Shown piece after piece: positions 2,773-25,600 of a stretch of 64,000 nucleotides of DNA. The position numbers and the translations under genes were made by a program. Below the pieces are notes generated by a model, which saw only the letters and a program-made list of their open reading frames with translations, did not search any database and was not told the origin of the DNA. The first letter of the stretch is position 1. Every line of letters begins with the position of its first letter. The DNA comes from a virus (taxonomy: Duplodnaviria; Caudoviricetes): IMG/VR virus record IMGVR_UViG_3300030109_003595, positions 9,024 to 73,023 of that record; one strand, given 5' to 3'.

Positions 2773-3382
2773 CATTCTATCATTAGATATTGAGACTATA
2801 AATTACTCATGGGATATAGGTGGATGGGATAATAAGAATCTATTCAAGATGAGTGTGATTGCTACTTGGGATGGTACTAATGCTACTTTATTTTGTAATG
2901 AAGATATACAGTTAGATGGTGTAAAAGTATTACCATTACATGCAACAGATATAGGTAATCATATTTCAGAACATGTAGAAAAAGGTGGTAAGATTTTAGG
3001 ACATAACATCATTGGTTTCGATTTACCTGTAATCAAAGAATCGTTAGACTGCTGGGCTGCTGGTGATATTATGTCTAAGAGTGCTGACACAATTATAGAC
3101 ACTAAAAATCTAGTTTCAAAAGCATCTAAAATACTATCAGATAATATAGGTACATCATTAGATATACTTACTAAATGTACTTTGAAAGAAGGTAAGATAA
3201 TGCAGAGTATAGATGCACCAAAGCAGTGGGCTTTGGGTAATTACAATGAGGTAGCAGAGTACTGCTTGAAAGATGCACAACTCACATACGAGTTGTACAA
3301 GTACGGTGCTGAGTATGGTATAGTAAAATCACTTTCCTTGGATACAGGAAAAGAGATAGAGATAGAGGTGAATTGGACATGA
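2765..3382 (+). CDS. DEDD/RNase H-like 3'-5' exonuclease (DnaQ-like)
   Basis: ExoI LSLDIET, ExoII GHNIIGFDL, ExoIII YCLKDA. Confidence 0.85.
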   Translation: MSDILSLDIETINYSWDIGGWDNKNLFKMSVIATWDGTNATLFCNEDIQLDGVKVLPLHATDIGNHISEHVEKGGKILGHNIIGFDLPVIKESLDCWAAGDIMSKSADTIIDTKNLVSKASKILSDNIGTSLDILTKCTLKEGKIMQSIDAPKQWALGNYNEVAEYCLKDAQLTYELYKYGAEYGIVKSLSLDTGKEIEIEVNWT

Positions 3383-4878
3383 CCGATAATGACAAGACAA
3401 ACAATGCACAAGTGATGAATATACGGGCTGCTAAGGCAATCGTAGAGACTGTACGCACTACACTAGGACCAATGGGTATGGACAAGATGATGGTAGATGG
3501 TGCTGGAAACGTGATAGTCACCAACGATGGTGCTACTATCCTACGTGAGTTAGACGTAGCACATCCCGGTGGTAAGATGATGATAGAGATATCAAAGACA
3601 CAGGAGACCATCTGCTACGACGGTACTACCAGTACTGTGGTGCTAGCAGGTCAACTACTGTCGAACAGCGAGATGTTGTTTGAGAAGGGTCTACACCCCA
3701 ATGTGATATGCAGAGGATATCGTGAAGCATCTCAGATGGCAATAGACTATCTGAACAGTGAAGTGTCAATGAACACAGGTAATGAGGTTCTACACGACAT
3801 AGCCAAGACCGCAATCACCGGTAAGACCGTAGAGGCTGCTACTGATATCGTGAGCACCCTCTGTGTGGATGCAGTCATGGCTGCTGGTGATGTGGACAAG
3901 GTAAGGGTCGTCAGCCTACCCGGTGGTAGTATCGAGGAATCCTACTTGTTCAACGGAGTGATTGTGAGTAAGGACTTCGTGCTAGACTATGACTTGGATG
4001 AAGAGACCAACATCCTTCTGCTCAACACAGGGCTTGAGGAGGAGAAGAGCAAGGAGAATGTACAGGTTCAACTGAATGCAGCAGACTACTCGCAGTTCCA
4101 GAAGTCAGGTAGAGATAACCTGCTTGAGCGTGCACAGCACATCGTGATGAGAATGGAAGGCAAGGGTGTAGTATTTGTCAGGGATGGTGTACATGACCAC
4201 GTGTGTGCCTATCTGAGAAAGAACGGCATAGGTGTGGTGAGAAGAGTGCCTGAGAGTGTGATGAAGGCACTGAGGGGATGCTTGGGCATCAGCGTAGCAC
4301 AGACTCCAGAGGAACTAGAAGCCTCAGCCTTCGTTAAGATATCGAGACAGAAGCACAATGACGTTCAGTACATATTCGTGGAGTCTATTGTTGACAGTGA
4401 CCAATCCACTCTAGTTCTAAGAGGGGCTACCCAATCCACTCTGGATGAGGTGGAGAGAGGCTTCGATGACGCACTGGGTGTGGTCAGCCTCGTCAAGGAA
4501 GACGGTAAGGTGGTTGCTGGTGGTGGCTCATCATTCGTGGCTATGGCCTCTTATCTGAGGAATCATGGCGCTAGTGTGGGTGGAAGGCCTCAGATGGCTA
4601 TAGAGGCCTTTGCTGACGCTCTAGAGGTTATCCCTGCTACCATAGCGGAGAACGCAGGACATGACCCACTGGATGTAGTGCTGGCGATGAGACACGAGAT
4701 ACAGAACGGCAACCTGTATCATGGGCCTGATGTCACTGATGGTGGTATCACCAACATGAGAGACGCTGGTATATTTGAGCCTACCAAACTAATCAAGCAG
4801 GCTGTGCTTAGTGCGACAGAAGTCACCACTGCCCTACTAAGGATAGACGATATCGTTGGTAGGAGACCTGTGGAATAA
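3379..4878 (+). CDS. Group II chaperonin (thermosome-like)
   Basis: TTLGPMGMDKM, TNDGATIL, DGTTS, LRGAT...EVER...DAL, AGGG, AFADALEVIP, LLRIDD motifs. Confidence 0.95.
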   Translation: MTDNDKTNNAQVMNIRAAKAIVETVRTTLGPMGMDKMMVDGAGNVIVTNDGATILRELDVAHPGGKMMIEISKTQETICYDGTTSTVVLAGQLLSNSEMLFEKGLHPNVICRGYREASQMAIDYLNSEVSMNTGNEVLHDIAKTAITGKTVEAATDIVSTLCVDAVMAAGDVDKVRVVSLPGGSIEESYLFNGVIVSKDFVLDYDLDEETNILLLNTGLEEEKSKENVQVQLNAADYSQFQKSGRDNLLERAQHIVMRMEGKGVVFVRDGVHDHVCAYLRKNGIGVVRRVPESVMKALRGCLGISVAQTPEELEASAFVKISRQKHNDVQYIFVESIVDSDQSTLVLRGATQSTLDEVERGFDDALGVVSLVKEDGKVVAGGGSSFVAMASYLRNHGASVGGRPQMAIEAFADALEVIPATIAENAGHDPLDVVLAMRHEIQNGNLYHGPDVTDGGITNMRDAGIFEPTKLIKQAVLSATEVTTALLRIDDIVGRRPVE

Positions 4879-5054
4879 TGGGAAGACTACTAGACAAACT
4901 AAACGTCACTTGCCGCGTTTGTGGTCACAAGCACATACCAAGAAGACTCAATGCTCGTTATCAAGATGGCGAAAAGAGGAGAGTTAACCTCTGGCAATGT
5001 AAGCAATGTGGTCACTTCTGGCAGGATTCAGTATACAAGAAGGCGAAACAATAA
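4878..5054 (+). CDS. 58-aa zinc-ribbon protein resembling the TFS/TFIIS C-terminal ribbon (absent from the ORF track)
   Basis: Manual translation MGRLLDKLNVTCRVCGHKHIPRRLNARYQDGEKRRVNLWQCKQCGHFWQDSVYKKAKQ; TAATG overlap with the chaperonin stop. Confidence 0.75.
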   Translation: MGRLLDKLNVTCRVCGHKHIPRRLNARYQDGEKRRVNLWQCKQCGHFWQDSVYKKAKQ

Positions 5055-5083
5055 ATTACCTTCGGTGTAGAATCTACACTACT

Positions 5084-5374
5084 ATGTTGTGGAGATGGTT
5101 TGCTCGTAAACTCATGAGTATAATGGGTAACCTCTACGTGTGGTTAGATAAGCGTGTGAAATACACTGATGAAGAAGTCAGTCAAGTCCTAGGTTTGGAC
5201 ATTGATGAAGACTTGAGGACCAGTTCAAGGTACGAATTATGTCGTATAGTCGAAGAGGAGTTCAAAGTACCCAAAGACTCCTTTTGGACTCTACACAGCA
5301 CCCAGAAGATACGCTTCGCTACACAGCAGATTCGTGAGATGAAGAAGCCTAGTAAGATGGATATGGGATACTGA
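5084..5374 (+). CDS. Hypothetical protein (~96 aa)
   Basis: ATG 5084 avoids overlap with the zinc-ribbon gene; TGATG coupling to the next micro-ORF. Confidence 0.65.
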   Translation: MLWRWFARKLMSIMGNLYVWLDKRVKYTDEEVSQVLGLDIDEDLRTSSRYELCRIVEEEFKVPKDSFWTLHSTQKIRFATQQIREMKKPSKMDMGY

Positions 5375-5516: not shown

Positions 5517-5650
5517 TTGTTGACCAACGTCTGATAGACGCTGTGTCCAATGACATCCAAGTGGAAATACCGTTAGTCTTTCCCTTGCTTCTACTGGCCA
5601 CAACAGGGTTGCTGATATATTTTGTATGGTCTAGTAGGGATAGTGAATGA
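5513..5650 (+). CDS. 45-aa single-pass membrane micro-protein
   Basis: MIVDQRLIDAVSNDIQVEIPLVFPLLLLATTGLLIYFVWSSRDSE; ~20-aa hydrophobic stretch; ATGA overlaps at both ends. Confidence 0.55.
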   Translation: MIVDQRLIDAVSNDIQVEIPLVFPLLLLATTGLLIYFVWSSRDSE

Positions 5651-6498
5651 GTGCCATATCTCTGTATGAAGTGAGTCCTAGAGATGGTTTGCAGGGTTTA
5701 CCAAGAGCCATCCCTCTGAGGAAAAAAGTAAAACTAATCAAGAAACTAAAGAAAGCAGGTATAGAGGGTATAGAGGTAGGCAGTCTAGTACACCCCTCTA
5801 TACTACCAATGAGAGAAAGTGGTAAACTGTACAAGAAAACCGGAGGAGACTTGCTGGTGGTAAATGAAAAAGGGTTCGATAGAGCGATAGAACTAGGTGC
5901 GAAAAGAGTGAACGTGGTGATAAGCCCTCATGACAATTTCAGCCAATTAAATCAGAAAAATACATATGAGAATATAATGAGTATATATCAAAATAAATGC
6001 AAGGATATACCGATAAATAGGTTATACATTAGTTGTGCATTTAGTACAGGTATATCTCAAAAAGCCGTTCTAGACTGCGTGAAGTGGGGTAAAGACATAG
6101 CAAAGTACATTGTTCTATGTGATACAGATAGTAATGCTACTGCTGAGAGTATAGCGTCATTATGTAGTGGAGCAAAAGCAATCACACCCAATCTCAGCAT
6201 ACATCTACACGTTGATGAGGATAGTACAGAATACATCAAAGCAGCCTATGACTCAGGTATCAGACAGTTCGACTGCTCTGTAGGTGGACTTGGTGGTTGT
6301 TTCTCCTTGGATGAAGCACAAGGTAATTTGAGAACAGAGTCATTGGTGTCGTGGGCATTATCCAATAACATACCAATAGAAGAGAACATACATGTGGGTA
6401 GATTGATATCCACAAGTGAATATGCATACAACCTAGCACACTCATACAGTCAGACTAAACTAGAGAAGATAATGGCAAGACTAGGAGTCTTAATCTAA
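5647..6498 (+). CDS. HMG-CoA lyase-like DRE-TIM metallolyase
   Basis: EVSPRDGLQ, IEVGS, LCDT, HLH metal ligands, FDCSVGGLGGC, GNLRTE. Confidence 0.85.
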   Translation: MSAISLYEVSPRDGLQGLPRAIPLRKKVKLIKKLKKAGIEGIEVGSLVHPSILPMRESGKLYKKTGGDLLVVNEKGFDRAIELGAKRVNVVISPHDNFSQLNQKNTYENIMSIYQNKCKDIPINRLYISCAFSTGISQKAVLDCVKWGKDIAKYIVLCDTDSNATAESIASLCSGAKAITPNLSIHLHVDEDSTEYIKAAYDSGIRQFDCSVGGLGGCFSLDEAQGNLRTESLVSWALSNNIPIEENIHVGRLISTSEYAYNLAHSYSQTKLEKIMARLGVLI

Positions 6499-6836
6499 GT
6501 GTGAATTATACCATTAGGATGGCTACTCATAAAACTAGGTTGTGCAGGGAAGAAGTCCGGCAAGTCTGTTATAACGACATTTCCCTCTGCTGCTAGTACA
6601 GTAGCAGGTAAGTCTAACAAAGCCTGTCTGTATTCTCCTAACTCTGTTTTCTGTGAGTCTGTGAGTGCATTATAGAGTAAGGGTTTAGATTGATAGTAAT
6701 CCACATACCTCTCCATTACCGAATCCCTAGAAGCCCTTAACTTATCATAAGAGTGTTCCACACTCATAATTACATCGCTTGCTCTACATGTCGTTCCATC
6801 TACTGCGCTCCATACATTCTCTCCCATAATTATCAT
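6495..6836 (-). CDS. Tail fibre assembly chaperone-like protein
   Basis: LRASRD...YRQALLDLP...FFPAQP pattern typical of fibre chaperones; directly downstream of the 2711-aa fibre. Confidence 0.65.
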   Translation of the reverse strand: MIIMGENVWSAVDGTTCRASDVIMSVEHSYDKLRASRDSVMERYVDYYQSKPLLYNALTDSQKTELGEYRQALLDLPATVLAAEGNVVITDLPDFFPAQPSFMSSHPNGIIHT

Positions 6837-9800
6837 CTCCTCTCAAAATACGCTGTAAACCTAGCAGGTCCAATTTGCGTAGCGTTAGAATAACTGGTCG
6901 GTGACTCTACTCTTATGTTGAAAGTGTCTCCCTCATCAAAATCAATATCGTAGTTAGTCTTAGACATGATGAATGCATTACCACCACTACCACTAGCGTT
7001 ACCTGTCATCGGGTCATTTAGTCCCGATTGATTCTTGAATATATCTATACTCATATTGGTGCTATTTGTCCTAGAGTTTTTGTTACCAAAGTGAATGTAT
7101 AGTGCCTTAAGGGTACAATCGCATCCTAGAGGCATACCGAAATCCACACCGCTTGATGACTTGGTAGTGTTCTGTGCCCCGTTACCATATGAGAATGAGA
7201 ATCCATTTGAGTTACCTGCTGTAGCAGGGCCAAGATAGTCATCTGACTCCTCACCGAAAATCATAAACGAATCTGTGGAAGAACCACCACCACTTGCATT
7301 TTCCCAAGCAACACCACTTCCTGTTGAAGTTAGAACTTGACCATCAGAACCTTGACCGCCATTTACTTTAATATTTTCAGCATCTACTAATCCAAAGTAT
7401 GCGTTTTTATATTTGAGAGATGAAGTTCCTAAGTCTATATCATTATCACTAACTGGATTTACTGCATTGTTTATGATTTTAATTTGATTAGCACCTGCTA
7501 CTCTAAATCTTACTTCGTTATCAGTATCAAATTGAATCTCATTATCTGCATCTCTACCAACTTTTAATGACGCATTCAATACAGAAGTAATACCTGTTTG
7601 TGCAGCAGTTACCGCTACATCATTTGCATTTGCAGTTATACCAGTTCCACCAATAACATTGACTGTTACTGCTCCACTGCTTCCGCCACCTGTTAATCCA
7701 GTTCCTGCGGTGACTCCTGTAATATCGCCTACGGGTATGTCAGTCCAAGACAATGTTCCACTACCGTTTGTGACAAGCACTTGATTTGCACTACCATCTG
7801 CGTTTGGCGTAGTTCCGGGGAATGTGAGAACCTCTCTCCTTGCTCCCCAATTGCCGCTATTTTCATCGGCCTCCCCTGTCCTAAAGTAAAGAGGCTCAGT
7901 ATCAACGCTAGTACTACCTGCGTCTGCGGCAGAGAATAACTGCCATGCCCTGTAATTGTCAGACCATCCCTTCATTGTGAGAATAGAATCCCAAGCATTA
8001 GTAGCGTTTGTAACATCGTCTGAGAATGTGAAGGTTGCAGATTTGTCTGCAAACTCTGTCGGTGTCATTTCGGAACTTGTTGTTGCTCCCTCGTTCCTTG
8101 CATCCCTGATTCTTATCTCCGATACATTGTCGCCTATCCATGTCTTTACTCTACCCATCGTGGTCTTACGAGTAGTACCACCTGCTCCGTCATCTATAAT
8201 GAGTAAATCTGCATCTTGGATACTTGCACCTATATCTGTAAGGCCATCAACATCCAAATCAAGAGTCACGCCACCGCTTGAACCACCACCCGATAGCCCC
8301 GTTCCGGCAGTTACGCCAGTAATGTCTCCAGAACCACCACCACTCACCGAAGCAAAGGAGAGTGTACCACTGCCATCTGTCTGTAACACTTGGTTAGCAT
8401 CACCGTCTGATGTGGGGAATGTGTATTCTCCATTGAATGTAATCGCACCGCCACTTGCTACACCTATCCTTACAGTGTCATTCGATACTATGTTGAAGTT
8501 GGAGTTGGTGAATGTCCCTACATTACCTGCATTGTTACCTACCTTGAGACCACCCTGTATCCCTGATGAGCCATCCTCTGCCATGATTCGTGCATCTTCA
8601 TCCACTACGTGCAAAGTGTAAGAAGGACTTGTAGTGCCTATTCCGACTTTACCATCATGGGTTATCCTCATCCTCTCAGCAGGTGCGGCATCGGAAGTCG
8701 CACTCCTAGTTCCGAAGGTCATGGCGGCTTGATAACTACCTGTTCCGTTTTCCTCCGCCCCTATTCTCACCGAGGGGTTGGCATCGCTACTGAAATGGCT
8801 CAGACCGATGTGAACGCTTCCCTGTGTGCTACCACTCGTTCCCCCTGTGGTTGAGAATAGCGCAACGGTATCGTCATTGGAAGAGCCTACGACATGAAGC
8901 AATTGGTCAGGACTCGTAGTGCCTATTCCGACATTGCCCTCCGAATTGATACGCATTCTCTCAAGGGAAGCAGTGTCATCGGCTTGGTCATTAGGTGCAG
9001 TGAAGAATGTCAGATGCCCTCCCTTGTCATCAACCGAATGGTCTTGAGAAGCATAAGCAGCGATACCTGCTGATGCCTCTGTTGCTCTTGAAGGCGCATT
9101 ACCATCCTTACCATCAAAACCAATCGCACCGAGTAAATCACCGGAAGCGACAGTTGTAGTGTTTCTGATGATTGTCAGACCGTCGTTGAAATCCCCACCA
9201 TTATGGTATAGTGTTAGAGTGGTCAATGGGTGCGAACCACCATTGTTCACGGCCAACTTACCATCTATCATTGTCATACCACAAGTGTTCGATGCATCTT
9301 GGGCTTTGCTTGATGATGAGTACCTGAACTCCATGTATCCGCCTTTGGCAGTCGCACTGTGGTCTTGCCTCGCTTTAGCAACAATAGCAGCAGATGCCTC
9401 AAACACACTGCTTGGTACATTGCCATCAGTCGAATCGAAACCAATGCCTCCGAGTATGTCGTTGTTGCCAGTTGTTGAGTCGGCTCTGACGACCATTATT
9501 CCGTTGTCACCATCAACACCAGTATGGTCAACCTGTAGTTTATTCAACGGACTCGTAGTGCCTATTCCGACATTACCCGAAGAATCAATCCTCATTCTTT
9601 CATTACTACCCGCAGTAAAGAACCTAACATTCTGATAAGATGCAGAATTGTTTCCACCATCATCAGCATACAAATCTAGGTTAAAGTCCGACTTGATTGA
9701 GCCGACAGAACCGCTAGTGTCAAACTTGAGATAGCCTGAACCGCTTGTCAGATGAAGCGGTGAACCGGGGCTTGAAGTGCCTATTCCGACATTACCATCA

Positions 9801-12800
9801 GCAGTAATAACCATCTTCTCAGTGAGGCTTGCACCCGAAGCATCTCCTTGAGATGTAAAGAACTCAATCGCACCATCGAAGTGTCCGGGGTCATTCGGGT
9901 CGCTGGTGATACCACGAATCTCAGCGACAGTGGTGACTTCTTGGCTGTTCTCGTTCATGGCAAATTGTAGTTTGCCTAAGACAAACTCGGTTGTTCCACC
10001 GAAGAAGTTGTTGGCATCGAACTGTGCCATCTGTATAATACCGGGTTGGCCCGATGTCCTACCGGAGACTCTTATCTGTGGGTCTGCCGCCCCTGTTCCT
10101 GTGTTAGCAGATGATGGTGCGGCAGTACCCGCATAACCCGTTCCATCCGTATCGTTGAACTCGCCTATCTTAATTCCGCCCCTTACGGCTAGTGAGTCAG
10201 TTGGACTCGAAGTGCCTATTCCCACATTACCTGCTGAATCAATCCTCATTCGTTCTGTGCCTGTCGTCGTGGCATCGTTAGCCGCAGACCAAAATCTGAT
10301 GCTGGTAGCCGCATTGACAGCGGTTGACCCACCACCGATATTCACGATGTTATCTGTCCCATCCGAATCACCGACAACCAAACCAATTGGTTCTTCGGCG
10401 TTGTGATAATGCGGAGTGGCGAACCTACCATACTTTCTTGTATCATTTGTCAAAGTAGCGGCATTCACATCTGCCCCCATTTGTATAGCGATGCCCGAAC
10501 CTGTATTCACATCGAGTAATGCTTCGGGCGCAGTAGTGCCTATTCCAACATTACCTGAGAAGTAATTCTTTGTCTCACCAGTAACATATAATCCCCAAGG
10601 ATTAGTTACGTTACCTGCACCTTGCCAATCAAGATACATGAGATAACCAGTTCCCGTTGTAACTGAATCATCATTATGGTCTATTGTGAATCTACCACCG
10701 AATAAATCTCCTGTTGATATTGAATTGCTATTACTACCTTCAATATCTACTTGGTTATATGAACCGTAAACATTTCCTACATCGCTTTCCCTGTCATTAT
10801 TTACTTCAATGTAGTTATATTCAGCATAGGAATTGGTGTTAACTCCAGTCTTTGCTATTCTTATATCGCTATAATGACCAACCAGAGAAGTTACAGTAGC
10901 ACTAGCATGAGTCATGTGAGAGTTCACAGAAGTTTGAACCCCTCTTAATGAATGAATGGTTTGTGCAGTTGAAGGTTCATACTCTTGATATGATTGAACA
11001 GCATATTGTCTGTTAGCATCACCGCTTTGTCTTTGGTCAATGTAAATACCTGCCATCTCTATTTCAGCGTTAGCAGCATCACCAGCAGTTGATGAGTTAT
11101 CTTGGTCAATATAAATTGCATAATGCTCATTATCCTGACCGGGAGTATTAGTTCCTGATGAATCATAATCAATGAATATACCAGCAGAAGCCGTTGCATC
11201 TGTAGCAGAATCTACGTTTCTATCAATGTGTATTCTGCCTGTTAAGTCATATTCTCCATAATGCACTAAGTTTGCTACTGTATCACTCTTACCAATTTCA
11301 ACAGGTTGTCCTGTATTGTATTGTAGATGTATTGAACCGCTATCTGTTTCAATTTCATTAGTGCTTCTTAGTTTAATATTACCCATTGTTATTGCAGTAG
11401 CGGTTATAGTGCCATCAACATCTAATTCTGAACCGGGACTCGTAGTGCCTATTCCAACTCGGTTTGCTGATGAATCAACAACTAAAGTATCTGTATCCCA
11501 AATTAAATCCCCTGTCCCACCAGTAAGGGCGGTTAAAGTTCCAAGTGAAGTAATCGCTGATTGCGCAGCACCTGTGACAGTCGCCGCAGTACCGCTTACG
11601 TTTCCTGTTACATCTCCTGTAAGCCCACCTACGAATGTGCCTGTCACAGTACCTACCTTGAAGTCCTCAAAGGCAGAGCCGTGCTTCAGTTCCATTCTGT
11701 TGTCTGTCGTGTTGTATTGGAATGTGATGTCGTCTCCTGACCCTCCCTCCAGTGTCAGACCAGTACCATCAACAACCTCAGCGGTTGCGTTTCCACTACC
11801 GAGAACTATGTTCTTGTCTTCAACAGTCATGGTTGCTGTGTTGAGTGTGGTGGTCGTGCCACTCACGATTAGTTTGTTGTGGATGGTGACATCACCTGTC
11901 GAACCGCTAACTGTGAGAGCATCTGAGTACGAGTTGTGAGTGGTGTTGGATGACCCTCCTGCTGGAGCATATTGGAGTTTCAGGTCTCCTCCACTTGCAG
12001 TTCCAGTACCAGCACCACCACCTAACTTCAGGACACTGCCCGCTGTGTCATTGCTACTGGTGGGTGCTGGGACAAGGTAGTTGGTATTCTGACCGAAGTA
12101 CATGTCTCCGCCGAATCCCTCCAACCAAGTGTCACTACCGCTCTTGAGAAGCAATTGCTTAGTTCCAGTAGCATCACGTAAATCACCAACTCCTGCACCG
12201 ATAACCACGTTATCGCTACCACTGGTGACGTTCTGTCCAGCGTTTCGCCCAATGAATATATTGTCATCACCACCTTGTAGAGAATCTCCCGCATCATTAC
12301 CTATGGTGACATTGAAGTCGCCAGTCGTGATTGACATTCCTGCATCTTCACCTATCGCAACGTTCCCACGACCAGTGGTTATGTCCTGCCCAGCATAGTA
12401 GCCGATTGCTACGTTCTTGTATCCACTGGTCACCTCCATCATCGGTTGGTATCCTATACCCACATTGTGGTTACCAGTGTTGTTTCCAGTGGTCGATGAC
12501 CCCTCTACTGCTGTGTATCCTATACCGATGTTGTAATCTCCATCCATGTATAATCCTGATTGCACACCCAAGAATATGCCCCCAGTCATGTCGATGGAGG
12601 TGGCGCTGCCCGCCAATGCTCCAATTGCTATGTTATTACTGCCAGTGGTCAAAGCGTCGAGCGCTCTGTCTCCTATCGCTACGTTAGTGCTACCAGTCGT
12701 GATTGACTCCATGGCTTGGTATCCGACCGCTATGTTGTCCTGACCTGTGGTGTATTCTCTTGCTGCTTGATATCCTATGCCTATATTTCTAACACCAGTG

Positions 12801-14968
12801 TTATTAGAGGCAGTGGTAGAACCATGAACTGCTTCAAAGCCCAAAGCGATATTGAAACCACTACCCATGTATAGACCTGCTTCACGACCAATTGCGATAT
12901 TGTCAGACAAGTCTGTGTCAGTAGAACCCATGCTATTGAATCCTAGTGCAACATTGTAATCACCACCAGTTATAGTGTCCATTGCAGTAGCACCGATAGC
13001 AACGTTACCCATGGTTGACTGTCCAGCGTATAGAGAACGATATCCGATTGCTACATTCTTGTCGCCACCCGTTATCGCTGTTGCAGCCTCATATCCAAGT
13101 GCGACGTTGTGGTCAGCACCAGTATGTACGAAGAGTGTCTTGTATCCTATACCGATATTATCCTGACCAGTATTGTCGTTCGGTGCAGTAGAGCCTCTTG
13201 TTGCGAACTCACCAATCCCTATGTTATTGCCGTTCGCTCCCATGTAGTATCCAGCACTCTTACCAATTGCTACGTTACTACTGCTCGTATTCTTCGCACC
13301 TCTCATGGTATTAGGGCCAATGGAGACGTTATCCGAGCCAGTTGTGTGTTGATGGAGGGCATGTTGCCCAATAGCGACGTTATCATCTCCGGTAGTGAGC
13401 GTATCTAGTGCATTATATCCGACAGCAACGTTGCTACTACCCTCTGTTAGTGCGGTTAGCGTCAATTGCCCCAATGCTACGTTATCTGACCCCGTAGTGA
13501 CTGCGTTCATCGTCGGTGAGCCAATCGCAATGTTATTCGTACCAGTGTTATCGGCTTTGGTGGAAGAACCAGTCATGGAGTTATCACCAATGGCTATATT
13601 CTCATTGCCCTTCATGCGAAGTCCAGCATGCTGACCTATGAATACTGAAAGGTCTATACCTGAATCCGTATCACCACCTGCTTCCACACCTATGAGCACA
13701 TTCTTACTACCCGTAGTGATATCATATCCCGCTTGGTCTCCGATTGCTATATTGTGGTCTGCGCTTGTTATGATTCGCAATGCGTCTTTACCTATTGCCA
13801 CGTTGTCTGTCGCACTGGTTAGTGAACCAGTGACAGGAGTACCACCGAAGTTGTTGATGAAGATTGAGTCATTAGATATGAGTACATCAGTGAGTCCGTT
13901 AAGAGCAGAAGCACCCCCTGAGGCTGTGGTGTCTATAGAGTCCTGCAAGTCGTCGAGAGTCATGTACTTCCATGAAGAGGCAGACTCGTCCCAAAGCAGA
14001 ATCTTGTCATCAGTGGCATCCGTTGATTCAGTCAACTGAGTCAGATTTATCGGGTCATCCAAACCCACTGTGTCACCACTGAGGGTTATCGGTGAGGACA
14101 CTGCTAGGTTGGTATTAGCGCTTATGTCGACGCTTGCTAGGTAGTTGTAACTCTCTATCTTCTCCTTGATTGCGCCGGATGACATTATGTGGTCGTCAGC
14201 ATCCACGAACTCAGTGCCTATGTCTATGTCATCGAAGGTATGTCCGCCGATTGTCATCGAACCCGCTTTGACATCCCCTGAAGTCTCGAACTTACCCGCT
14301 GACGACGCTGTTGGTGATGCCGTGCCGAGAGCGAGTGAGTAGATGTACGAACCTGCTGTGCCGCTAGCCTCGAACTGACCCTCAACGTAAGCATCGTTTC
14401 CGTTCAGGGCAATCTTGGTGGGACTGGTTGCCCCTACCCTCAAGTCGTCTGTGAAGTATCCGCTACCGACTACGTGAAGGTCATAGGATGGTGTGCTAGT
14501 GCCTATTCCGAGTCTTTGAGTGCTACCATCGAACCTGACGTATTCAGTAGTACCTACTTTGATGACAACATCATCATCTGGATTTAGTTGTATATTCGCG
14601 TCTGCCGTTATCAGAAGATTCTCAGGATTGCTAGCATCAGCACCAATTCTAGTGTCCGTGGAATCGAAGTTAATGTATTTCTGCTGCGGTATCGTCATGT
14701 CATTGGTGAGAGTGACCTCACCATCGTTGCCCACTGTGAACTTAGTAGCACCATCTTCGGTGATTACGAAATTGCTATTAGTATCATTGGTGTTGGTATC
14801 GAGATTGATGTTGACAGAGCCGAGTGAGTTGATTGCCAGTATCGAACTAGATGTACCGCTGATGTTACCGATAGTGCCTAGAGTGAGTACACCGTCTATT
14901 ATCGAGGAGTCCTTGTTAGGTCCTTCTACGTCTAGTCCTTTCTTTACCCTGAATGTTTTCTCTGCCAT
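6833..14968 (-). CDS. Large modular tail fibre/adhesin (2711 aa)
   Basis: Gly/Ser/Thr/Asp-rich; ~14-aa N(I/V)A(I/V)G YadA-head-like beta-roll repeats (~12190-13810); repeated ERMRI..GNVGIGTTSP junctions; DG.ANQVL.T.GSG.LS motifs; GGTGAGG SD. Confidence 0.85.
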   Translation of the reverse strand: MAEKTFRVKKGLDVEGPNKDSSIIDGVLTLGTIGNISGTSSSILAINSLGSVNINLDTNTNDTNSNFVITEDGATKFTVGNDGEVTLTNDMTIPQQKYINFDSTDTRIGADASNPENLLITADANIQLNPDDDVVIKVGTTEYVRFDGSTQRLGIGTSTPSYDLHVVGSGYFTDDLRVGATSPTKIALNGNDAYVEGQFEASGTAGSYIYSLALGTASPTASSAGKFETSGDVKAGSMTIGGHTFDDIDIGTEFVDADDHIMSSGAIKEKIESYNYLASVDISANTNLAVSSPITLSGDTVGLDDPINLTQLTESTDATDDKILLWDESASSWKYMTLDDLQDSIDTTASGGASALNGLTDVLISNDSIFINNFGGTPVTGSLTSATDNVAIGKDALRIITSADHNIAIGDQAGYDITTGSKNVLIGVEAGGDTDSGIDLSVFIGQHAGLRMKGNENIAIGDNSMTGSSTKADNTGTNNIAIGSPTMNAVTTGSDNVALGQLTLTALTEGSSNVAVGYNALDTLTTGDDNVAIGQHALHQHTTGSDNVSIGPNTMRGAKNTSSSNVAIGKSAGYYMGANGNNIGIGEFATRGSTAPNDNTGQDNIGIGYKTLFVHTGADHNVALGYEAATAITGGDKNVAIGYRSLYAGQSTMGNVAIGATAMDTITGGDYNVALGFNSMGSTDTDLSDNIAIGREAGLYMGSGFNIALGFEAVHGSTTASNNTGVRNIGIGYQAAREYTTGQDNIAVGYQAMESITTGSTNVAIGDRALDALTTGSNNIAIGALAGSATSIDMTGGIFLGVQSGLYMDGDYNIGIGYTAVEGSSTTGNNTGNHNVGIGYQPMMEVTSGYKNVAIGYYAGQDITTGRGNVAIGEDAGMSITTGDFNVTIGNDAGDSLQGGDDNIFIGRNAGQNVTSGSDNVVIGAGVGDLRDATGTKQLLLKSGSDTWLEGFGGDMYFGQNTNYLVPAPTSSNDTAGSVLKLGGGAGTGTASGGDLKLQYAPAGGSSNTTHNSYSDALTVSGSTGDVTIHNKLIVSGTTTTLNTATMTVEDKNIVLGSGNATAEVVDGTGLTLEGGSGDDITFQYNTTDNRMELKHGSAFEDFKVGTVTGTFVGGLTGDVTGNVSGTAATVTGAAQSAITSLGTLTALTGGTGDLIWDTDTLVVDSSANRVGIGTTSPGSELDVDGTITATAITMGNIKLRSTNEIETDSGSIHLQYNTGQPVEIGKSDTVANLVHYGEYDLTGRIHIDRNVDSATDATASAGIFIDYDSSGTNTPGQDNEHYAIYIDQDNSSTAGDAANAEIEMAGIYIDQRQSGDANRQYAVQSYQEYEPSTAQTIHSLRGVQTSVNSHMTHASATVTSLVGHYSDIRIAKTGVNTNSYAEYNYIEVNNDRESDVGNVYGSYNQVDIEGSNSNSISTGDLFGGRFTIDHNDDSVTTGTGYLMYLDWQGAGNVTNPWGLYVTGETKNYFSGNVGIGTTAPEALLDVNTGSGIAIQMGADVNAATLTNDTRKYGRFATPHYHNAEEPIGLVVGDSDGTDNIVNIGGGSTAVNAATSIRFWSAANDATTTGTERMRIDSAGNVGIGTSSPTDSLAVRGGIKIGEFNDTDGTGYAGTAAPSSANTGTGAADPQIRVSGRTSGQPGIIQMAQFDANNFFGGTTEFVLGKLQFAMNENSQEVTTVAEIRGITSDPNDPGHFDGAIEFFTSQGDASGASLTEKMVITADGNVGIGTSSPGSPLHLTSGSGYLKFDTSGSVGSIKSDFNLDLYADDGGNNSASYQNVRFFTAGSNERMRIDSSGNVGIGTTSPLNKLQVDHTGVDGDNGIMVVRADSTTGNNDILGGIGFDSTDGNVPSSVFEASAAIVAKARQDHSATAKGGYMEFRYSSSSKAQDASNTCGMTMIDGKLAVNNGGSHPLTTLTLYHNGGDFNDGLTIIRNTTTVASGDLLGAIGFDGKDGNAPSRATEASAGIAAYASQDHSVDDKGGHLTFFTAPNDQADDTASLERMRINSEGNVGIGTTSPDQLLHVVGSSNDDTVALFSTTGGTSGSTQGSVHIGLSHFSSDANPSVRIGAEENGTGSYQAAMTFGTRSATSDAAPAERMRITHDGKVGIGTTSPSYTLHVVDEDARIMAEDGSSGIQGGLKVGNNAGNVGTFTNSNFNIVSNDTVRIGVASGGAITFNGEYTFPTSDGDANQVLQTDGSGTLSFASVSGGGSGDITGVTAGTGLSGGGSSGGVTLDLDVDGLTDIGASIQDADLLIIDDGAGGTTRKTTMGRVKTWIGDNVSEIRIRDARNEGATTSSEMTPTEFADKSATFTFSDDVTNATNAWDSILTMKGWSDNYRAWQLFSAADAGSTSVDTEPLYFRTGEADENSGNWGARREVLTFPGTTPNADGSANQVLVTNGSGTLSWTDIPVGDITGVTAGTGLTGGGSSGAVTVNVIGGTGITANANDVAVTAAQTGITSVLNASLKVGRDADNEIQFDTDNEVRFRVAGANQIKIINNAVNPVSDNDIDLGTSSLKYKNAYFGLVDAENIKVNGGQGSDGQVLTSTGSGVAWENASGGGSSTDSFMIFGEESDDYLGPATAGNSNGFSFSYGNGAQNTTKSSSGVDFGMPLGCDCTLKALYIHFGNKNSRTNSTNMSIDIFKNQSGLNDPMTGNASGSGGNAFIMSKTNYDIDFDEGDTFNIRVESPTSYSNATQIGPARFTAYFERR
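8633..14509. repeat. Eight exact copies of the 12-mer AGTGCCTATTCC (coding strand GGA ATA GGC ACT = GIGT) at fibre module junctions
   Basis: Copies start at 8633, 8918, 9557, 9776, 10211, 10535, 11444 and 14498. The copies at 8910 and 9549 share 26 identical bp. Confidence 0.9.
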
Positions 14969-21211: not shown

Positions 21212-22647
21212 CACTCTCCACCTCTTACGCTTACTTCGCTAAACTTCGACATTCCAATCACCTTAGTAGTCCCTGCTTTCCCTATAGTAGCCCTCCCAGC
21301 AGCCCTGCCGATTGCAAACTTGGAATTGAGGCTTTCTACAACTCTCACTGTTATTATGGGAATAGTCATTATTTCAAACGAGGAGAACAGGGACAGATTC
21401 TTCTCAGTCTGCTGGCTTATCGTATCTGGGTTGTCGCCTGATGAAGAGGCCATCATTCCTTCGCTGATACCTTGTAGCACACCCTCCACACCAGTCTGCA
21501 CGGATATGAAGTTCATGTCCGTCAATCTGGATGATAGGATGTGTCTGGATTCTGTGATTAGTTTCTTCTCTCCCTTGTAGGACACCACCTTTCCGGGTCT
21601 CAAGTCCCAAGCGTCTGGGTGACCACTGCTTCTCAATGAGCCTTGCTCTAGGGAGTTGGCCTTGAGAATCTGCCTCGCCACTCTCTTAGCGGCAGCGTTG
21701 GTCTTCACCGTGGCATCGAAGATTGGTGTGACTGTCTCCTGCACGTCTGTGTCGAACTTGCCCTGTTGTCTCTCAGCATCGTCTACAGTGACCGATGCAC
21801 TCTCGTTCTTCGCTAGGGGTATGCCTTGGATTGATATTCTGTTCTCATTGTGGGAGGATGGGTTGGTTTCCTCATTGCCCTGCCTCATGCCCGCATCTAG
21901 GAATCTGGTGGATGTGGTGAATGTGAATGGGGTGTACATGAGATTGGCGAATCTGTCGAAGTAGATGATATTACCATCATGACGTGATGAGAACTTCAGC
22001 GCTGATATGAGAGGCACGCCGTAGAAATCCTCTGCTAGGAACTTGTTAGTGTGCTTTCTCCTAGCGCTGTTGGTGTTCGCTGCGTGTCTCAACGAGCCTA
22101 TCTGCACAGATGTGAGAGTGGATGCCACGTCAGTCCCCAACCTCATTGCCAAGTCGCTAGTTCTTAAGCCAACATCAATCGGGTCTCCTAGGTGAACTGT
22201 CCGGCCTTGGAAGCCTATGTTCTTGAGACTCCTTCCCTTCATATTCTTCATGTTGATTTTGACTCCCTCCGTAGATGACTCTGCTGTGGATAGAGTGAGT
22301 CTGTCTGATGTATCCTCACCACTGTACATCAATATGGGGAGATTCGACGTGGATGATATCACACCGCTCTCATAGAATGGTGCTGCTGTGCTGGTGTGAC
22401 CGGGTACACTCACATGCGATAGTTGCACTGAGGACTCACCTTCGACCAATTCGTACCTCTTCTCGCTGAATACGTTGTATGTTGCGTTGTTCCTGTTCTC
22501 TATGGTTATCTTGTGCTTGTGGTCAGACTGAGATTCTAAGAGAGCGTGATGCACTGCGTTGTCCACGAACACAGGTTTTCTCACATGCTTCATCGCCTCG
22601 TTGACGGTATCAGTGAACTTGCCTGTGCTTGCTAGTAGTTTGGTCAT
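21211..22647 (-). CDS. Baseplate hub / tail-tip-like protein (478 aa)
   Basis: C-terminal IYFDRFANLMY...GHPDAWDLRPGKVV...ITESRH pattern resembles hub (gp27/late-control-D-like) proteins; gene position agrees. Confidence 0.5.
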   Translation of the reverse strand: MTKLLASTGKFTDTVNEAMKHVRKPVFVDNAVHHALLESQSDHKHKITIENRNNATYNVFSEKRYELVEGESSVQLSHVSVPGHTSTAAPFYESGVISSTSNLPILMYSGEDTSDRLTLSTAESSTEGVKINMKNMKGRSLKNIGFQGRTVHLGDPIDVGLRTSDLAMRLGTDVASTLTSVQIGSLRHAANTNSARRKHTNKFLAEDFYGVPLISALKFSSRHDGNIIYFDRFANLMYTPFTFTTSTRFLDAGMRQGNEETNPSSHNENRISIQGIPLAKNESASVTVDDAERQQGKFDTDVQETVTPIFDATVKTNAAAKRVARQILKANSLEQGSLRSSGHPDAWDLRPGKVVSYKGEKKLITESRHILSSRLTDMNFISVQTGVEGVLQGISEGMMASSSGDNPDTISQQTEKNLSLFSSFEIMTIPIITVRVVESLNSKFAIGRAAGRATIGKAGTTKVIGMSKFSEVSVRGGE

Positions 22648-25600
22648 GCTGCATCACCACTGTGGTTGCTTACGTTGAAGGACACATCACCTTTGTGTCC
22701 CTTGGGGTGCAGAGACTGGCTGAATCTGGGCTTGACGCTGTAGTCCAACCTTCTCACTATCTGATTGGATTCTTCTATCTGTCTCCTTCTAGATGCGTCT
22801 GCTCTGTAATGCTGTAGGGTGTTCTCGCTTATTATCATCCTAGTCACTGGGCTTGTTATTGTGGTCTTGTCGAAACCTGTGGTCTCTGTTCCCAGTATCT
22901 TAGGCCCTTTGGATGTGGGTGTGGTGGCACTGCTATTGCTCATGAACACCACAGGTACGTATGGTCCGTTGGTGTCTGGTGCTGTGCTCCTTGGGAAGTT
23001 GTCTGAAGCCACTCTAGGTGTGGGTGTTTCGTATGTGAACAGACCGTACTTACCACCACCGGATGCTCTGAAGAAGTTAGAAGCAGGCTGTGGTGTGTTG
23101 CCTGCTACGGACGGTACTGGTCTGAACATCTCCACATGCTGCTTGTCCAACACACGGACGGGTCGTAGCAACCACTTCACGCTCTGGTCCTTCTGGTTGT
23201 TCTTCACAGTGTTCCTGCTGAAGTCGGTGTTCTGATACGGGTTGGTTGTCTTAGCACCACCTGATACACCATCCAGTCCCCACCCTGTGTCATCGAAGAA
23301 AGAGCCGTAACTCTTTGTCTCCAGCACGTAACTACCGCCTAGTGGATTTACGTTGCTAGTGTGACTGAACCTGAGCACGCTGTTCATGTGTCCGTTGAAT
23401 GCAGCGGTCGTCAGGTCCAAGTCACCAAGAGTCTGAGTGTTCGCCACCAGAGCACCGTGCAGCACTGTCCTCTGTCCTACACCTCTGTCTGTGTGTAGGC
23501 TATGTGCTTCGGTGTTGATTGCAATGTGGTCCTTCTCAAGACCCTCCATGTTCTCAGCGTCAATGCCTATCCTAGGGGTGCTTCTGCTGATTGCGTCTTT
23601 GTGTGGTGATGTGCCTACTATCTGCTCTACCCTGTCGCTGACCACTGCATCTGGCTTGAGTAGGCCGTCTTCCTCTATCTCCAGTCTAGCGCTGATTCCC
23701 CTTGGAATCTCATCGGCTTGCAGTACGTCGTTACGGGGGCGTAACAAGCCCGTTACGGCTGGTGGTTCTGCTGTGTTGTGACTCAGCACGACACCAGTGG
23801 AGTGCACAGGCTCTGACAACTCCGTGAGTATGTCCTCGTTGAATTGGCTGGGGTATCTCACTCCCCTGCCGTTGCCCATGTCCCCTACTCTCATGGAGTG
23901 CGTAGGGGCGAACACATCGACCAACTCTGTGCTGCTACCACTCAGAGATTGAGTACCACCCAATCTAGGTGCGTCACCAGTTCTCTCTCCTGAGGAGTTT
24001 ATCACACCAAGGACATCGAATATGGGTTTGCCGTTGTTGAATATCCTAGCATGGGGCGACCTGTTGTTGGTTCTGTCATACTCGTATGCATCTCCGCAGT
24101 CCCATGCTGGTCTGATACCGAATCCACGCACTGGAGCACGCCTTACGTCCTCTCCACGCTCATTGCCCCACCAATCTACCAGATAGTACTGAGCGGCCTC
24201 TGTGAGGCTGTATACACCCTTCCCTAGTATATCGCCCCACCAGTCCCTGCCTTGGTTGTTATTGGCTACCAATGTTCTCAGTGGTGCTCCGAACGGTCTG
24301 GTCATCCTCCTGCCGTCGCTGTACCTCACTTGGTATTCGGGTCTGTCTGCTGCGAGCATACCAGCGAAGTTGGTCTGCCTCTCCATGATACCGACGTATG
24401 TCGTTGACAGAGGAACGTTAGACTGCGACGTATCTCCACCGATGTACGTCCATGTGGAGGCAGGCATATGCACCAATGGTCCTGCAACGTAGTCAGTGGT
24501 GTACTGAGTCTCTGATGTGTTGTCATCCTCCAGTTTGCCCCTGCCGGGCAGTATGCCGTATGTCGGCTTGTTGTACACCTGTCTCAGGGATATTCTCCAC
24601 CCGTATGAGTAGCGGTTGGCATCATGCGAACTACTCATCGTATCGAACGTGATGCCACTGCTGGCCATGGCATAACTTGAGTTGGCCGTATCCTCGTCCT
24701 TCCAGAAGTAGAAGTCGTTTGCAGCGTATTTACGGGGTATTGACCATGATACGCTCGCTTCGGTATACAGGTCGAGACGACTCACCAGAGGTCCACCACG
24801 GCTACCACACGGCCAGAACTTGCTGTACATCACCTTCTGGCTATCCAGTGTAGTACCACCCTGCGCCTCGTATCCAGAGAGTGCCTCTATTGCCGCTCCT
24901 GTGGCTGAAACGCCTGTTTTCGTGTCTGGGTTAGCAGACTTAATCCTCAGTGATAGAGGACCTAAACTCATCGCATACACCGAATCATGGTAGTGTATGC
25001 TCTCGAAATGCTCAGGTAGGCTGTTGTATGGCTTCTTGTCCACCGCCCTATCACTGGTTGGGTTGTTGAAAGTACGTGAACTATCCGAGTAGAATGTATA
25101 TGGTCTTCCCAAATTACTATTCCACATACATAGATATGCATCGGGTATATGTAAATTAGTTGTATCTCTAGTACCTTTTTCTAATTGTGAAAGTACTTTT
25201 GTAAATATACTACTATTAGTATCTGTAAATACATTCTTGGAACTGTATATGTCATATGGTTGTGATAATCTAATGACTGTACCTTCTGTTAGATTGTCCC
25301 AGAATGGCCCAGAAACGACGTTTGACTGTAGTTTATCTGGTTTGTTAATTGCGTTTAACTGCAATCCTGAGCGTCTTGTGTATGCTAATGTCTGTCTAAT
25401 ACCATTAGAATCTGTATATTCCAGCACTTCTGCATATTGTGGAGTCTCTGGGAATCTACTTGCGTCATCTACAGTGATTGTTCTATACCCATTTGCTGTA
25501 CTTTGAATACTTTTCACTATACATTTTGCATTTAGAGATGTATTTTGTAATATATGTGAATATATATTTGGATATATTGAAGGATATCCTGCAATTGTTA

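Follow-up and report, generated by a model that had tools for sequence, protein, structure and literature searches.

Codon-identical GIGT seams part dissimilar modules of a giant phage tail fibre and are probably kept alike by homology-dependent exchange

The present analysis concerns a tail-fibre gene within a 64,000-nt stretch of viral DNA (the window, positions 9,024 to 73,023 of the IMG/VR virus record IMGVR_UViG_3300030109_003595), the full record comprising 73,023 nt at an estimated completeness of 68%. In the 2711-aa open reading frame (ORF) of this fibre, the peptide Gly-Ile-Gly-Thr (GIGT) stands at eight junctions between otherwise dissimilar modules, and at all eight it is spelt by one and the same 12-mer, GGAATAGGCACT. 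The identity exceeds what codon bias yields, homology to related phages breaks off at these seams far more often than expected, and the spelling differs from lineage to lineage. Tail fibres set the host range, and here the way in which modules of different origin make up a giant fibre can be followed base by base, with a seam that is kept identical in DNA within the gene and is different between phage pools. The gene adds another case to motif-mediated fibre mosaicism, which is already known from T-even phages.

The 12-mer reads AGTGCCTATTCC on the plus strand, where a count over the window yields exactly eight copies, starting at the lower coordinate of each seam listed here together with the gene:

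6833–14968, minus strand: tail-fibre ORF, 2711 aa
14498–14509, minus strand: seam at GIGT residue 154 (12-mer)
11444–11455, minus strand: seam at GIGT residue 1172 (12-mer; 20-mer copy at 11436–11455)
10535–10546, minus strand: seam at GIGT residue 1475 (12-mer)
10211–10222, minus strand: seam at GIGT residue 1583 (12-mer)
9776–9787, minus strand: seam at GIGT residue 1728 (12-mer)
9557–9568, minus strand: seam at GIGT residue 1801 (12-mer; 20-mer and 26-mer copy from 9549)
8918–8929, minus strand: seam at GIGT residue 2014 (12-mer; 20-mer and 26-mer copy from 8910)
8633–8644, minus strand: seam at GIGT residue 2109 (12-mer)
10547–11443, minus strand: low-GC cassette, residues ~1176–1474
8645–8917, minus strand: module between seams 2014 and 2109, exchanged as a unit (match in a related phage and metagenome contig, see below)

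All copies are in frame in the fibre ORF, which is their sole location: the whole record holds eight forward copies, none in reverse and no further one, and 100 shuffles of the window gave an expectation of zero. The 12-mer forms the core of a segment of about 30 nt, GGT AAT GTC GGA ATA GGC ACT ACG AGT CCN, which encodes the loop G-N-V-G-I-G-T-T-S-P...L.V. In the three 20-mer copies (8910, 9549 and 11436; two of these, 8910 and 9549, extend to 26 bp) the third letters run A, A, C and then T, G, T (GGA ATA GGC / ACT ACG AGT), a pattern that is followed neither by the preceding codons (T, T, C) nor by the commonest spellings elsewhere.

The modules between the seams are mutually unrelated. Their interiors gave a best blastp match of E = 0.01 and no blastn match at E <= 0.01, on which grounds a recent duplication as the source of the 12-mer identity is rejected. 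The low-GC cassette, i.e. the module spanning 10535 to 11444, differs also in composition, with a GC content of 0.373 and a GC content at third codon positions (GC3) of 0.211, whereas the other GIGT-bounded modules range from 0.44 to 0.53 and from 0.38 to 0.50, respectively. With two change-points fitted, its edges fall at 10541 (2-lnL support interval 10422–10583) and 11508 (11393–11562), and both flanking 12-mers lie inside these intervals.

Codon and context effects on the seam spelling are real but far too weak to account for the identity. Given the peptide GIGT, this spelling has a probability of 0.008 per site from genome codon usage and of 0.0066 from a chain of codon pairs built with these sites left out, while eight sites would agree in any spelling whatsoever with a probability of 2.7e-12 under the usage of all genes and of 1.5e-11 under that of the fibre itself. 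Controls within the gene behave quite differently: the peptides NVAI and VAIG, present in eight copies each, occur in eight spellings each, six other GIG sites of the fibre use four further spellings, and the two copies of the repeated fibre peptide GDITGVTAGTGL agree at 2 of 12 codons. Even beside the motif, four codons are used for the invariant Pro at +6, five for the invariant Leu at +10 and three for Val at -1. Outside the fibre, the GIGT sites of a 5567-aa ORF (36864 and 36936) are each one base off the 12-mer. As regards context, Ile is encoded by ATA at all eight IGT sites outside the GIGT sites of the fibre, and ACC never follows a Gly codon (0/215) because the sequence GGNNCC is absent from the genome. 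In addition, ATAGGCACT spells three of the nine other IGT sites in the genome (counting the DIGT of the fibre at 14213), compared to about 0.6 expected. An earlier note on this DNA had described the eight codon-identical junctions with their 20- and 26-bp extensions, the unrelated modules, the AT-richer module and the one-base differences in the giant protein, and had argued that codon bias contributes to the identity without forcing it; on all of these points it proved correct.

The fibre starts with N-terminal beta-helix repeats of the NVAIG type, continues with the chain of GIGT-bounded modules and ends in a C-terminal part in which QVL..GSG and GDITGV motifs occur. The ORF matches the PHROG families tail spike, tail fibre and virion structural protein, and its tblastn matches are fibre genes of marine phages, namely pelagiphages, cyanophages and roseophages. 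A Pfam search with the whole 2711-aa protein found no family at E <= 0.01, including the S74 C-terminal intramolecular chaperone-protease domain, and megablast of the gene against the phage collection gave no match. In contrast, a phmmer search of residues 1440–2160 against the PDB retrieved 8OND (E=1.1e-9), 8OML (2.2e-7) and 8OJN (5.5e-6), followed by 8ON4 and 8OL4, all of which are beta-helix domains of Bdellovibrio bacteriovorus MAT fibres, in alignments centred on ERMRI..GNVGIGT..P...L.V.

According to the parts of the report by Caulton et al. (2024, PMC10769870) drawn on here, MAT fibres consist of trimeric beta-helix domains whose edges are capped by conserved loops, and the tips or C-terminal domains of these fibres have been exchanged in evolution. 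For Bd2133, domain limits of G683-E813 and N814-A907 are given there, and our alignment places these limits such that a domain ends just past the L.V.x that follows the loop. By homology, the GIGT motif would hence be the structural seam that bounds successive trimeric beta-helix modules of the fibre. Such a role accounts for the conservation of the peptide, but not for that of its silent sites. The likeness extends over the ERMRI...GNVGIGT..P...L.V element and the beta-helix that follows it, as the 8OND alignment indicates. The MAT fibres differ in that they are bacterial surface fibres that were studied as proteins, and neither DNA-level conservation nor recombination at the loop is addressed in the passages of PMC10769870 considered here, the word 'recombination' appearing twice in them, both times in the methods. 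Furthermore, the consensus printed in these passages, V-G-G/N-pi-X-X-P-X-X-X-L, has one residue fewer between G and P than the V-G-I-G-T-T-S-P found here, and the equivalence of the loops consequently rests on the phmmer alignment and not on the printed consensus.

If the seams were places of exchange, homology to related phages should end there. We collected the end-points of de-duplicated blastn matches (>= 150 nt, >= 75% identity) between the fibre gene and the related loci gathered, excluding gene and locus ends and dropping five duplicates (L112 = L009, L092 within L137, L045 = L139, L105 = L138 and L011 = L010). Fourteen of the 36 end-points lie within 12 nt of a 12-mer, compared to about 1.3 expected (binomial P 9e-12), and 18 lie within 40 nt, compared to about 3.3 (binomial P 3e-10). 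Each of the eight seams has at least one end-point nearby, although the end-points are not independent of each other. In the alignments, homology stops abruptly at the motif. Four modules are shared with four different phages at 82–88% DNA identity, with ends from -10 to +40 nt relative to the 12-mer; positions are given in nt of the fibre coding sequence (CDS), which runs on the minus strand of the window, and three of the phages also carry locus names (G003 = L139, G002 = L138, G004 = L012):

CDS nt 2934–3557: shared with G001 at 85% DNA identity, ending 32 nt after the 12-mer of seam 1172
CDS nt 3563–4436 (low-GC cassette, 874 nt): shared with G003 at 87.6% DNA identity, starting 38 nt after seam 1172 and ending 2 nt after the 12-mer of seam 1475
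CDS nt 4738–5233: shared with G004 (21.9-kb record) at 82% DNA identity, starting 9 nt before seam 1583 and ending 40 nt after seam 1728
CDS nt 6030–6317 only: shared with G002 (24.5-kb record) at 86.5% DNA identity, starting 10 nt before seam 2014 and ending 8 nt before seam 2109

G001 is a backbone relative, with a portal protein 97% identical in amino acids and neighbouring genes 82–88% identical in DNA. The portal of G003, a complete phage record of 98 kb, is on the other hand 46% identical, and the low-GC cassette with its foreign GC3 of 0.21 came from this distant lineage. Further end-points lie near several seams. At seam 154, homology begins 4, 2 and 0 nt before the 12-mer in L096, L009 and L117, respectively, and 7 nt after it in G001. 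At seam 1728, homology to L063 stops 12 nt after and homology to L076 begins 2 nt before the 12-mer; L076 in turn stops 8 nt after seam 1801, where L079 begins 9 nt before, and L079 stops 9 nt after seam 2014. Finally, homology to L096 begins 27 nt before seam 2109. These comparisons support the notion that the GIGT motif marks seams at which fibre modules were exchanged between viruses.

Contigs of related phages from public marine sequencing runs (X3, X4, X5 and X7) add to this picture, all statements on them being valid among the matches listed; gene parts that are left uncovered in X5 and X7 are uninformative. Edges of contig matches fall at seams at 10536, 11448, 10209, 8914 and 14491. 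The contigs from X3 and X4 diverge at 11448, within the 12-mer of seam 1172, a contig from X7 diverges at 10209, by seam 1583, and a contig from X5 carries 75 unlike letters before its match sets in at 10536. The clearest case is a 2332-nt X7 contig that matches 8658–8914 with eight other letters and nothing beyond on either side, which corresponds to the module between two 12-mers. The X3 and X4 contigs, which are G001-like, have 648 other letters in place of 14492–14773 (282 nt). A joint 8931>11436 (X3, a single contig with a side of 72) suggests that, in some co-occurring relative, a module resembling the one after seam 2014 comes directly after the region before seam 1172. Seven other joints with a short side of fewer than 30 letters (8679>8910, 8914>9777, 8931>14973, 9577>11590, 11924>12662, 12547>13844 and 12964>13739) were not counted, as they most likely reflect the shared motif or repeats of other phages.

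The spelling itself is local to a lineage or pool and does not represent a universal site. Ten of 15 orthologous seam copies in relatives differ from it, by 1–4 bases, and each of the five identical ones belongs to a locus that had itself been retrieved via the spelling. Among relatives found by protein similarity alone, a single one of 20 GIGT sites is exact. In relatives of the same pool it is the commonest but not the sole spelling (3/7 sites in G001, 4/7 in G002 and 3/5 in G003), and in L009 it occurs at one of five sites. The 118 loci retrieved via the spelling have 174 exact sites out of 468, at least 118 of which are owed to ascertainment. An unbiased peptide scan of phage fibres yielded 120 loci with 490 GIGT sites in 127 spellings, and the spelling of the present phage is not among the 15 commonest of this sample.

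Other fibre genes lock other spellings, namely GGTATCGGGACG at 6/6 sites in L174, GGTATAGGAACA at 10/13 in L190, GGTATAGGTACA at 9/16 in L213 and GGTATTGGTACT at 11/24 in L241; for these four, recent whole-module duplication is addressed by the following pooled profile alone. Over 43 ORFs with at least four sites, codon identity within an ORF exceeds the between-ORF baseline by 0.10–0.27 at offsets -3 to +5, and by no more than 0.09 at the remaining 19 offsets (-12 to +15). The profile compares codons given the same residue against a baseline at similar GC, but it is descriptive and carries no significance test, which has to be held against the reading developed below. Silent-site homogenisation over about 27 nt of loop-coding DNA is hence general in this fibre class, with the present gene as an extreme case. 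The relation between copies is also the one by which concerted evolution is recognised, as the eight paralogous copies are all identical here whereas two thirds of the orthologous ones (10/15) are different.

Unrelated modules, a shared seam, a lineage-specific spelling, paralogues that are more alike than orthologues, and breakpoints at the seams together point to a homology-dependent process. From our point of view, the best explanation, and a probable one, is homology-dependent exchange and gene conversion at the loop-coding seam, with the spelling kept alike by concerted evolution. As every module needs the loop, its DNA would be the sole stretch common to otherwise unrelated modules and could as such act as a landing pad for homology-dependent recombination. 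Recombination between the seams of co-infecting phages would then swap, add or remove modules, while recombination between non-orthologous seams of one gene would lead to unequal exchange or, through heteroduplex, to short-patch gene conversion. Repeated exchange and conversion would homogenise the spelling within the gene and within the recombining pool, and a homogenised spelling would in turn keep the seams recombination-competent. Conversion would hence be the cause of the homogeneity, and no dedicated recombinase would be required, as general recombination enzymes of the host or the phage could act. PHROG and Pfam scans of the early-gene region found no annealing protein or recombinase, the matches there being solely a nuclease with ERCC4 and HhH domains, a PD-(D/E)XK exonuclease, PolB and a polymerase-exonuclease-like protein.

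Several points weigh against this explanation. We infer crossovers in the seam DNA itself, no recombination event having been observed directly. Twelve identical bases are below the homology that is usually thought to be needed for efficient RecA-type recombination, the similar stretch at the seams being nearer to 30 nt than to 12. Moreover, the box of perfect identity is sharply limited to 12 nt, with Val at -1 and Thr/Ser at +4 varying, whereas conversion tracts would give a gradient. Half of the end-points (18/36) lie away from the seams, for instance inside the N-terminal repeats and in the C-terminal part, and at CDS nt 195 (window 14774, residue 65), which is not a GIGT seam, homology is lost in L137, L096 and L117; likewise, contigs end at 9098, 9139 and 7416, away from seams, among the matches listed. 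Most of the relatives that define breakpoints were found via the motif pattern itself, so that their possession of the spelling is partly ascertainment, and several share one breakpoint, which makes the end-points non-independent. Lastly, four of the 18 near-seam end-points are 27–40 nt off the 12-mer (e.g. +32 and +38 at seam 1172). This distance corresponds to the end of the loop element (L.V.G) and to the domain boundary that is given for Bdellovibrio in the cited parts of PMC10769870, and it indicates that selection for foldable chimeras contributes. The 12-mer is therefore not always the crossover point, and chimera viability also shapes which junctions survive.

Taken further, this last point leads to the most serious competing explanation, in which recombination is random or illegitimate, only chimeras joined at domain boundaries survive, and the identity of the 12-mer is a by-product of intragenic conversion or drift without any role in exchange. 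Such a filter would fit the position of the loop at domain edges in the solved homologues (PMC10769870, in the parts cited above), the breakpoints that sit where the loop element ends, 32–40 nt away from the 12-mer, and the differences of 1–4 bases between orthologous seams, owing to which exchange partners would often be non-identical in the 12-mer. It leaves unexplained, however, why homogenisation within genes and pools is limited to the loop core of about 27 nt while other conserved codons are spared, and why 14 of 36 end-points fall no more than 12 nt from the 12-mer. A homology-dependent process has to act on precisely this DNA. We therefore regard this explanation as possible but rather unlikely.

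A second possibility is that the nucleotides of the seam serve another function, as a protein-binding site, as a translational pause for co-translational folding of the trimer or as an mRNA element. The invariance of the synonymous sites in all eight copies beside conserved neighbouring codons that vary is what such a function would predict. The same loop is, however, spelt otherwise in relatives and other lineages, and the function would need to be re-invented in each of them, which makes this reading very unlikely. Rare-codon pausing in particular was rejected on codon usage, as ATA is the commonest Ile codon (0.51) and GGA and ACT are common as well, so that no such pause is implied.

It is slightly less probable still that the 12-mer represents the core site of a dedicated recombinase that moves modules as cassettes. 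Shufflons, invertible segments of the Cin/Gin/Min type and integrons rearrange DNA at short repeats to alter the part of a fibre or pilus that binds the receptor, and are characterised by a dedicated recombinase, by sites that are inverted (shufflon, Cin/Gin) or structured (attC), and by stored alternative cassettes. A perfect core with sharp limits and variable flanks at each junction would be in line with such a system, ERCC4 and PD-(D/E)XK nucleases are encoded by the phage, and, the record being 68% complete, the remainder of the genome could encode a recombinase. Compared to shufflons and Cin/Gin, however, all eight sites are direct and lie within one ORF, and neither an inverted copy nor a spare cassette exists elsewhere in the record; compared to integrons, no integrase match was obtained, the sites are in frame within one ORF, and the 'cassettes' are protein modules and not genes. 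PF00589 (Phage_integrase) and PF00239 (Resolvase) gave no match in the 73-kb record, whereas control genomes matched, the absence being unproven at 68% completeness. Furthermore, the spelling varies among orthologues and lineages (127 spellings at 490 sites), and the breakpoints do not share one fixed phosphodiester position but scatter across about 60 nt of the DNA that encodes the loop. The earlier note had regarded the motif as an in-frame crossover site for adhesin modules with an integron- or shufflon-like logic, had expected breakpoints of homologues at the 12-mer, and had named orphan modules and tyrosine or serine recombinases elsewhere in the genome as things to look for. The homology ends, 18 of 36 within 40 nt and 14 within 12 nt, support module exchange at the seams and breakpoints near the 12-mer, but the integron/shufflon logic is not supported, and the record, at 68% completeness, yielded neither orphan modules nor a match to such a recombinase. 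Two findings had been named there as adverse to its proposal; motif variation among relatives was in part observed, in the ten differing orthologous copies, while codon usage does not explain the identity.

Finally, the view that codon, codon-pair and restriction-site-avoidance bias alone produced the identity has next to no probability, given that ATA before Gly, the missing ACC after Gly and the recurrence of ATAGGCACT leave the codon-usage, codon-pair and in-gene control results, by which it is refuted, unaffected.

Going beyond homology-dependent exchange and conversion, one could speculate that the spelling of the seam has evolved as a tag of compatibility and is more than a footprint. 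Each phage pool would maintain a synonymous 'dialect' in the 30-mer that encodes the loop, this dialect would decide with which partners modules can be traded in frame, also across distant lineages, and the identity would be maintained by second-order selection for fibre evolvability. This idea is tentative and in our opinion has only a modest chance of being right. The case of G003 touches on it, as a module is shared at 87.6% DNA identity, the portal is 46% identical, and the same spelling is the commonest in that phage. If true, the seam spelling would provide a map of fibre gene flow in uncultured marine phages that can be read from sequence. If the spelling indeed governs exchange, it would further offer a natural design rule for the in-frame swapping of modules in laboratory phage fibre engineering.

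The closest precedent is found in the distal tail-fibre and adhesin genes of T-even phages (gp37, gp38), for which motif-mediated recombination is described in the passages of Trojet et al. (2011, PMC3157838, citing Tetart et al. 1996, 1998) that we refer to here. According to these passages, host-recognition genes consist of variable segments parted by short conserved motifs, and a dedicated recombinase is not involved. In the present gene, GIGT loops part dissimilar modules and natural breakpoints lie within or near the motifs. The motif itself is different, being the beta-helix capping loop GNVGIGTTSP in place of the glycine-rich motifs or His boxes described for T-even phages, and the unit of exchange is a whole module of 70–300 aa and not, as in those passages, the loops of one domain (PMC3157838). 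Pool-specific locking of the synonymous sites of the seam is seen here and is not found in the T-even passages of that article. The system would thus follow the same logic as the T-even exchange in another fibre family, with whole modules as units and codon-locked seams. Among the best-ranked matches of a literature search, there was nothing on DNA-level locking of the GIGT loop, nor on its gene conversion or concerted evolution in tail fibres.

A more distant analogue would be the GRINS of polyketide synthase genes, which in the portion of PMC8256042 used here are in-frame DNA elements of a giant modular ORF, tied to gene conversion between modules and to diversification. In the same portion they are defined by nucleotide skew, and they differ from the present seams in host, gene class and element length (PMC8256042). 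At most, the third letters of the 12-mer and the next two codons, with A/C followed by G/T, form a possible skew-like pattern.

Besides the GIGT seams, the fibre gene has a second class of mosaic boundary in the region 7300–7730 (fibre residues ~2409–2564), whose motif is not codon-locked (2/12 codons in common). This region includes a second low-GC patch, with GC of 0.31–0.34 at 7300–7600. A break at 7416 is common to contigs from four public runs, several contigs have one at 7660–7730, near the GDITGV motif, and L010 and L011 match residues 2217–2408 and 2565–2711 at 74–78% without the intervening part.

The record belongs to a tailed phage and encodes a large terminase, a portal, a prohead protease and an SU10-type capsid protein. 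The 5567-aa giant ORF (window 22644–39347, minus strand) contains three near-copies of the 12-mer with 1–2 mismatches (33525, 36864 and 36936), which sit in the contexts GGIGT, IGIGT and RIGT without the Pro of the loop. The lack of GGNNCC concerns the whole record, with 0 sites compared to 218 +/- 15 expected from a first-order Markov model, while GGWCC (69), GGCC (120) and GTAC (290) all occur. This suggests that a host restriction system with GGNNCC specificity, of the NlaIV type, has exerted strong selection. Just downstream of the fibre gene, a possible assembly chaperone is encoded:

6495–6836, minus strand: small ORF, possible tail-fibre assembly chaperone, with a weak match to the Pfam family Phage_tail_APC (E=2.7e-4; 21.1 bits at a curated cut-off of 26.6)

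Beside the fibre operon, the plus strand of the window encodes a full-length chaperonin of the Cpn60/GroEL type (E=7e-131) and an HMGL-like protein, at 3373–4878 and 5647–6498, respectively.

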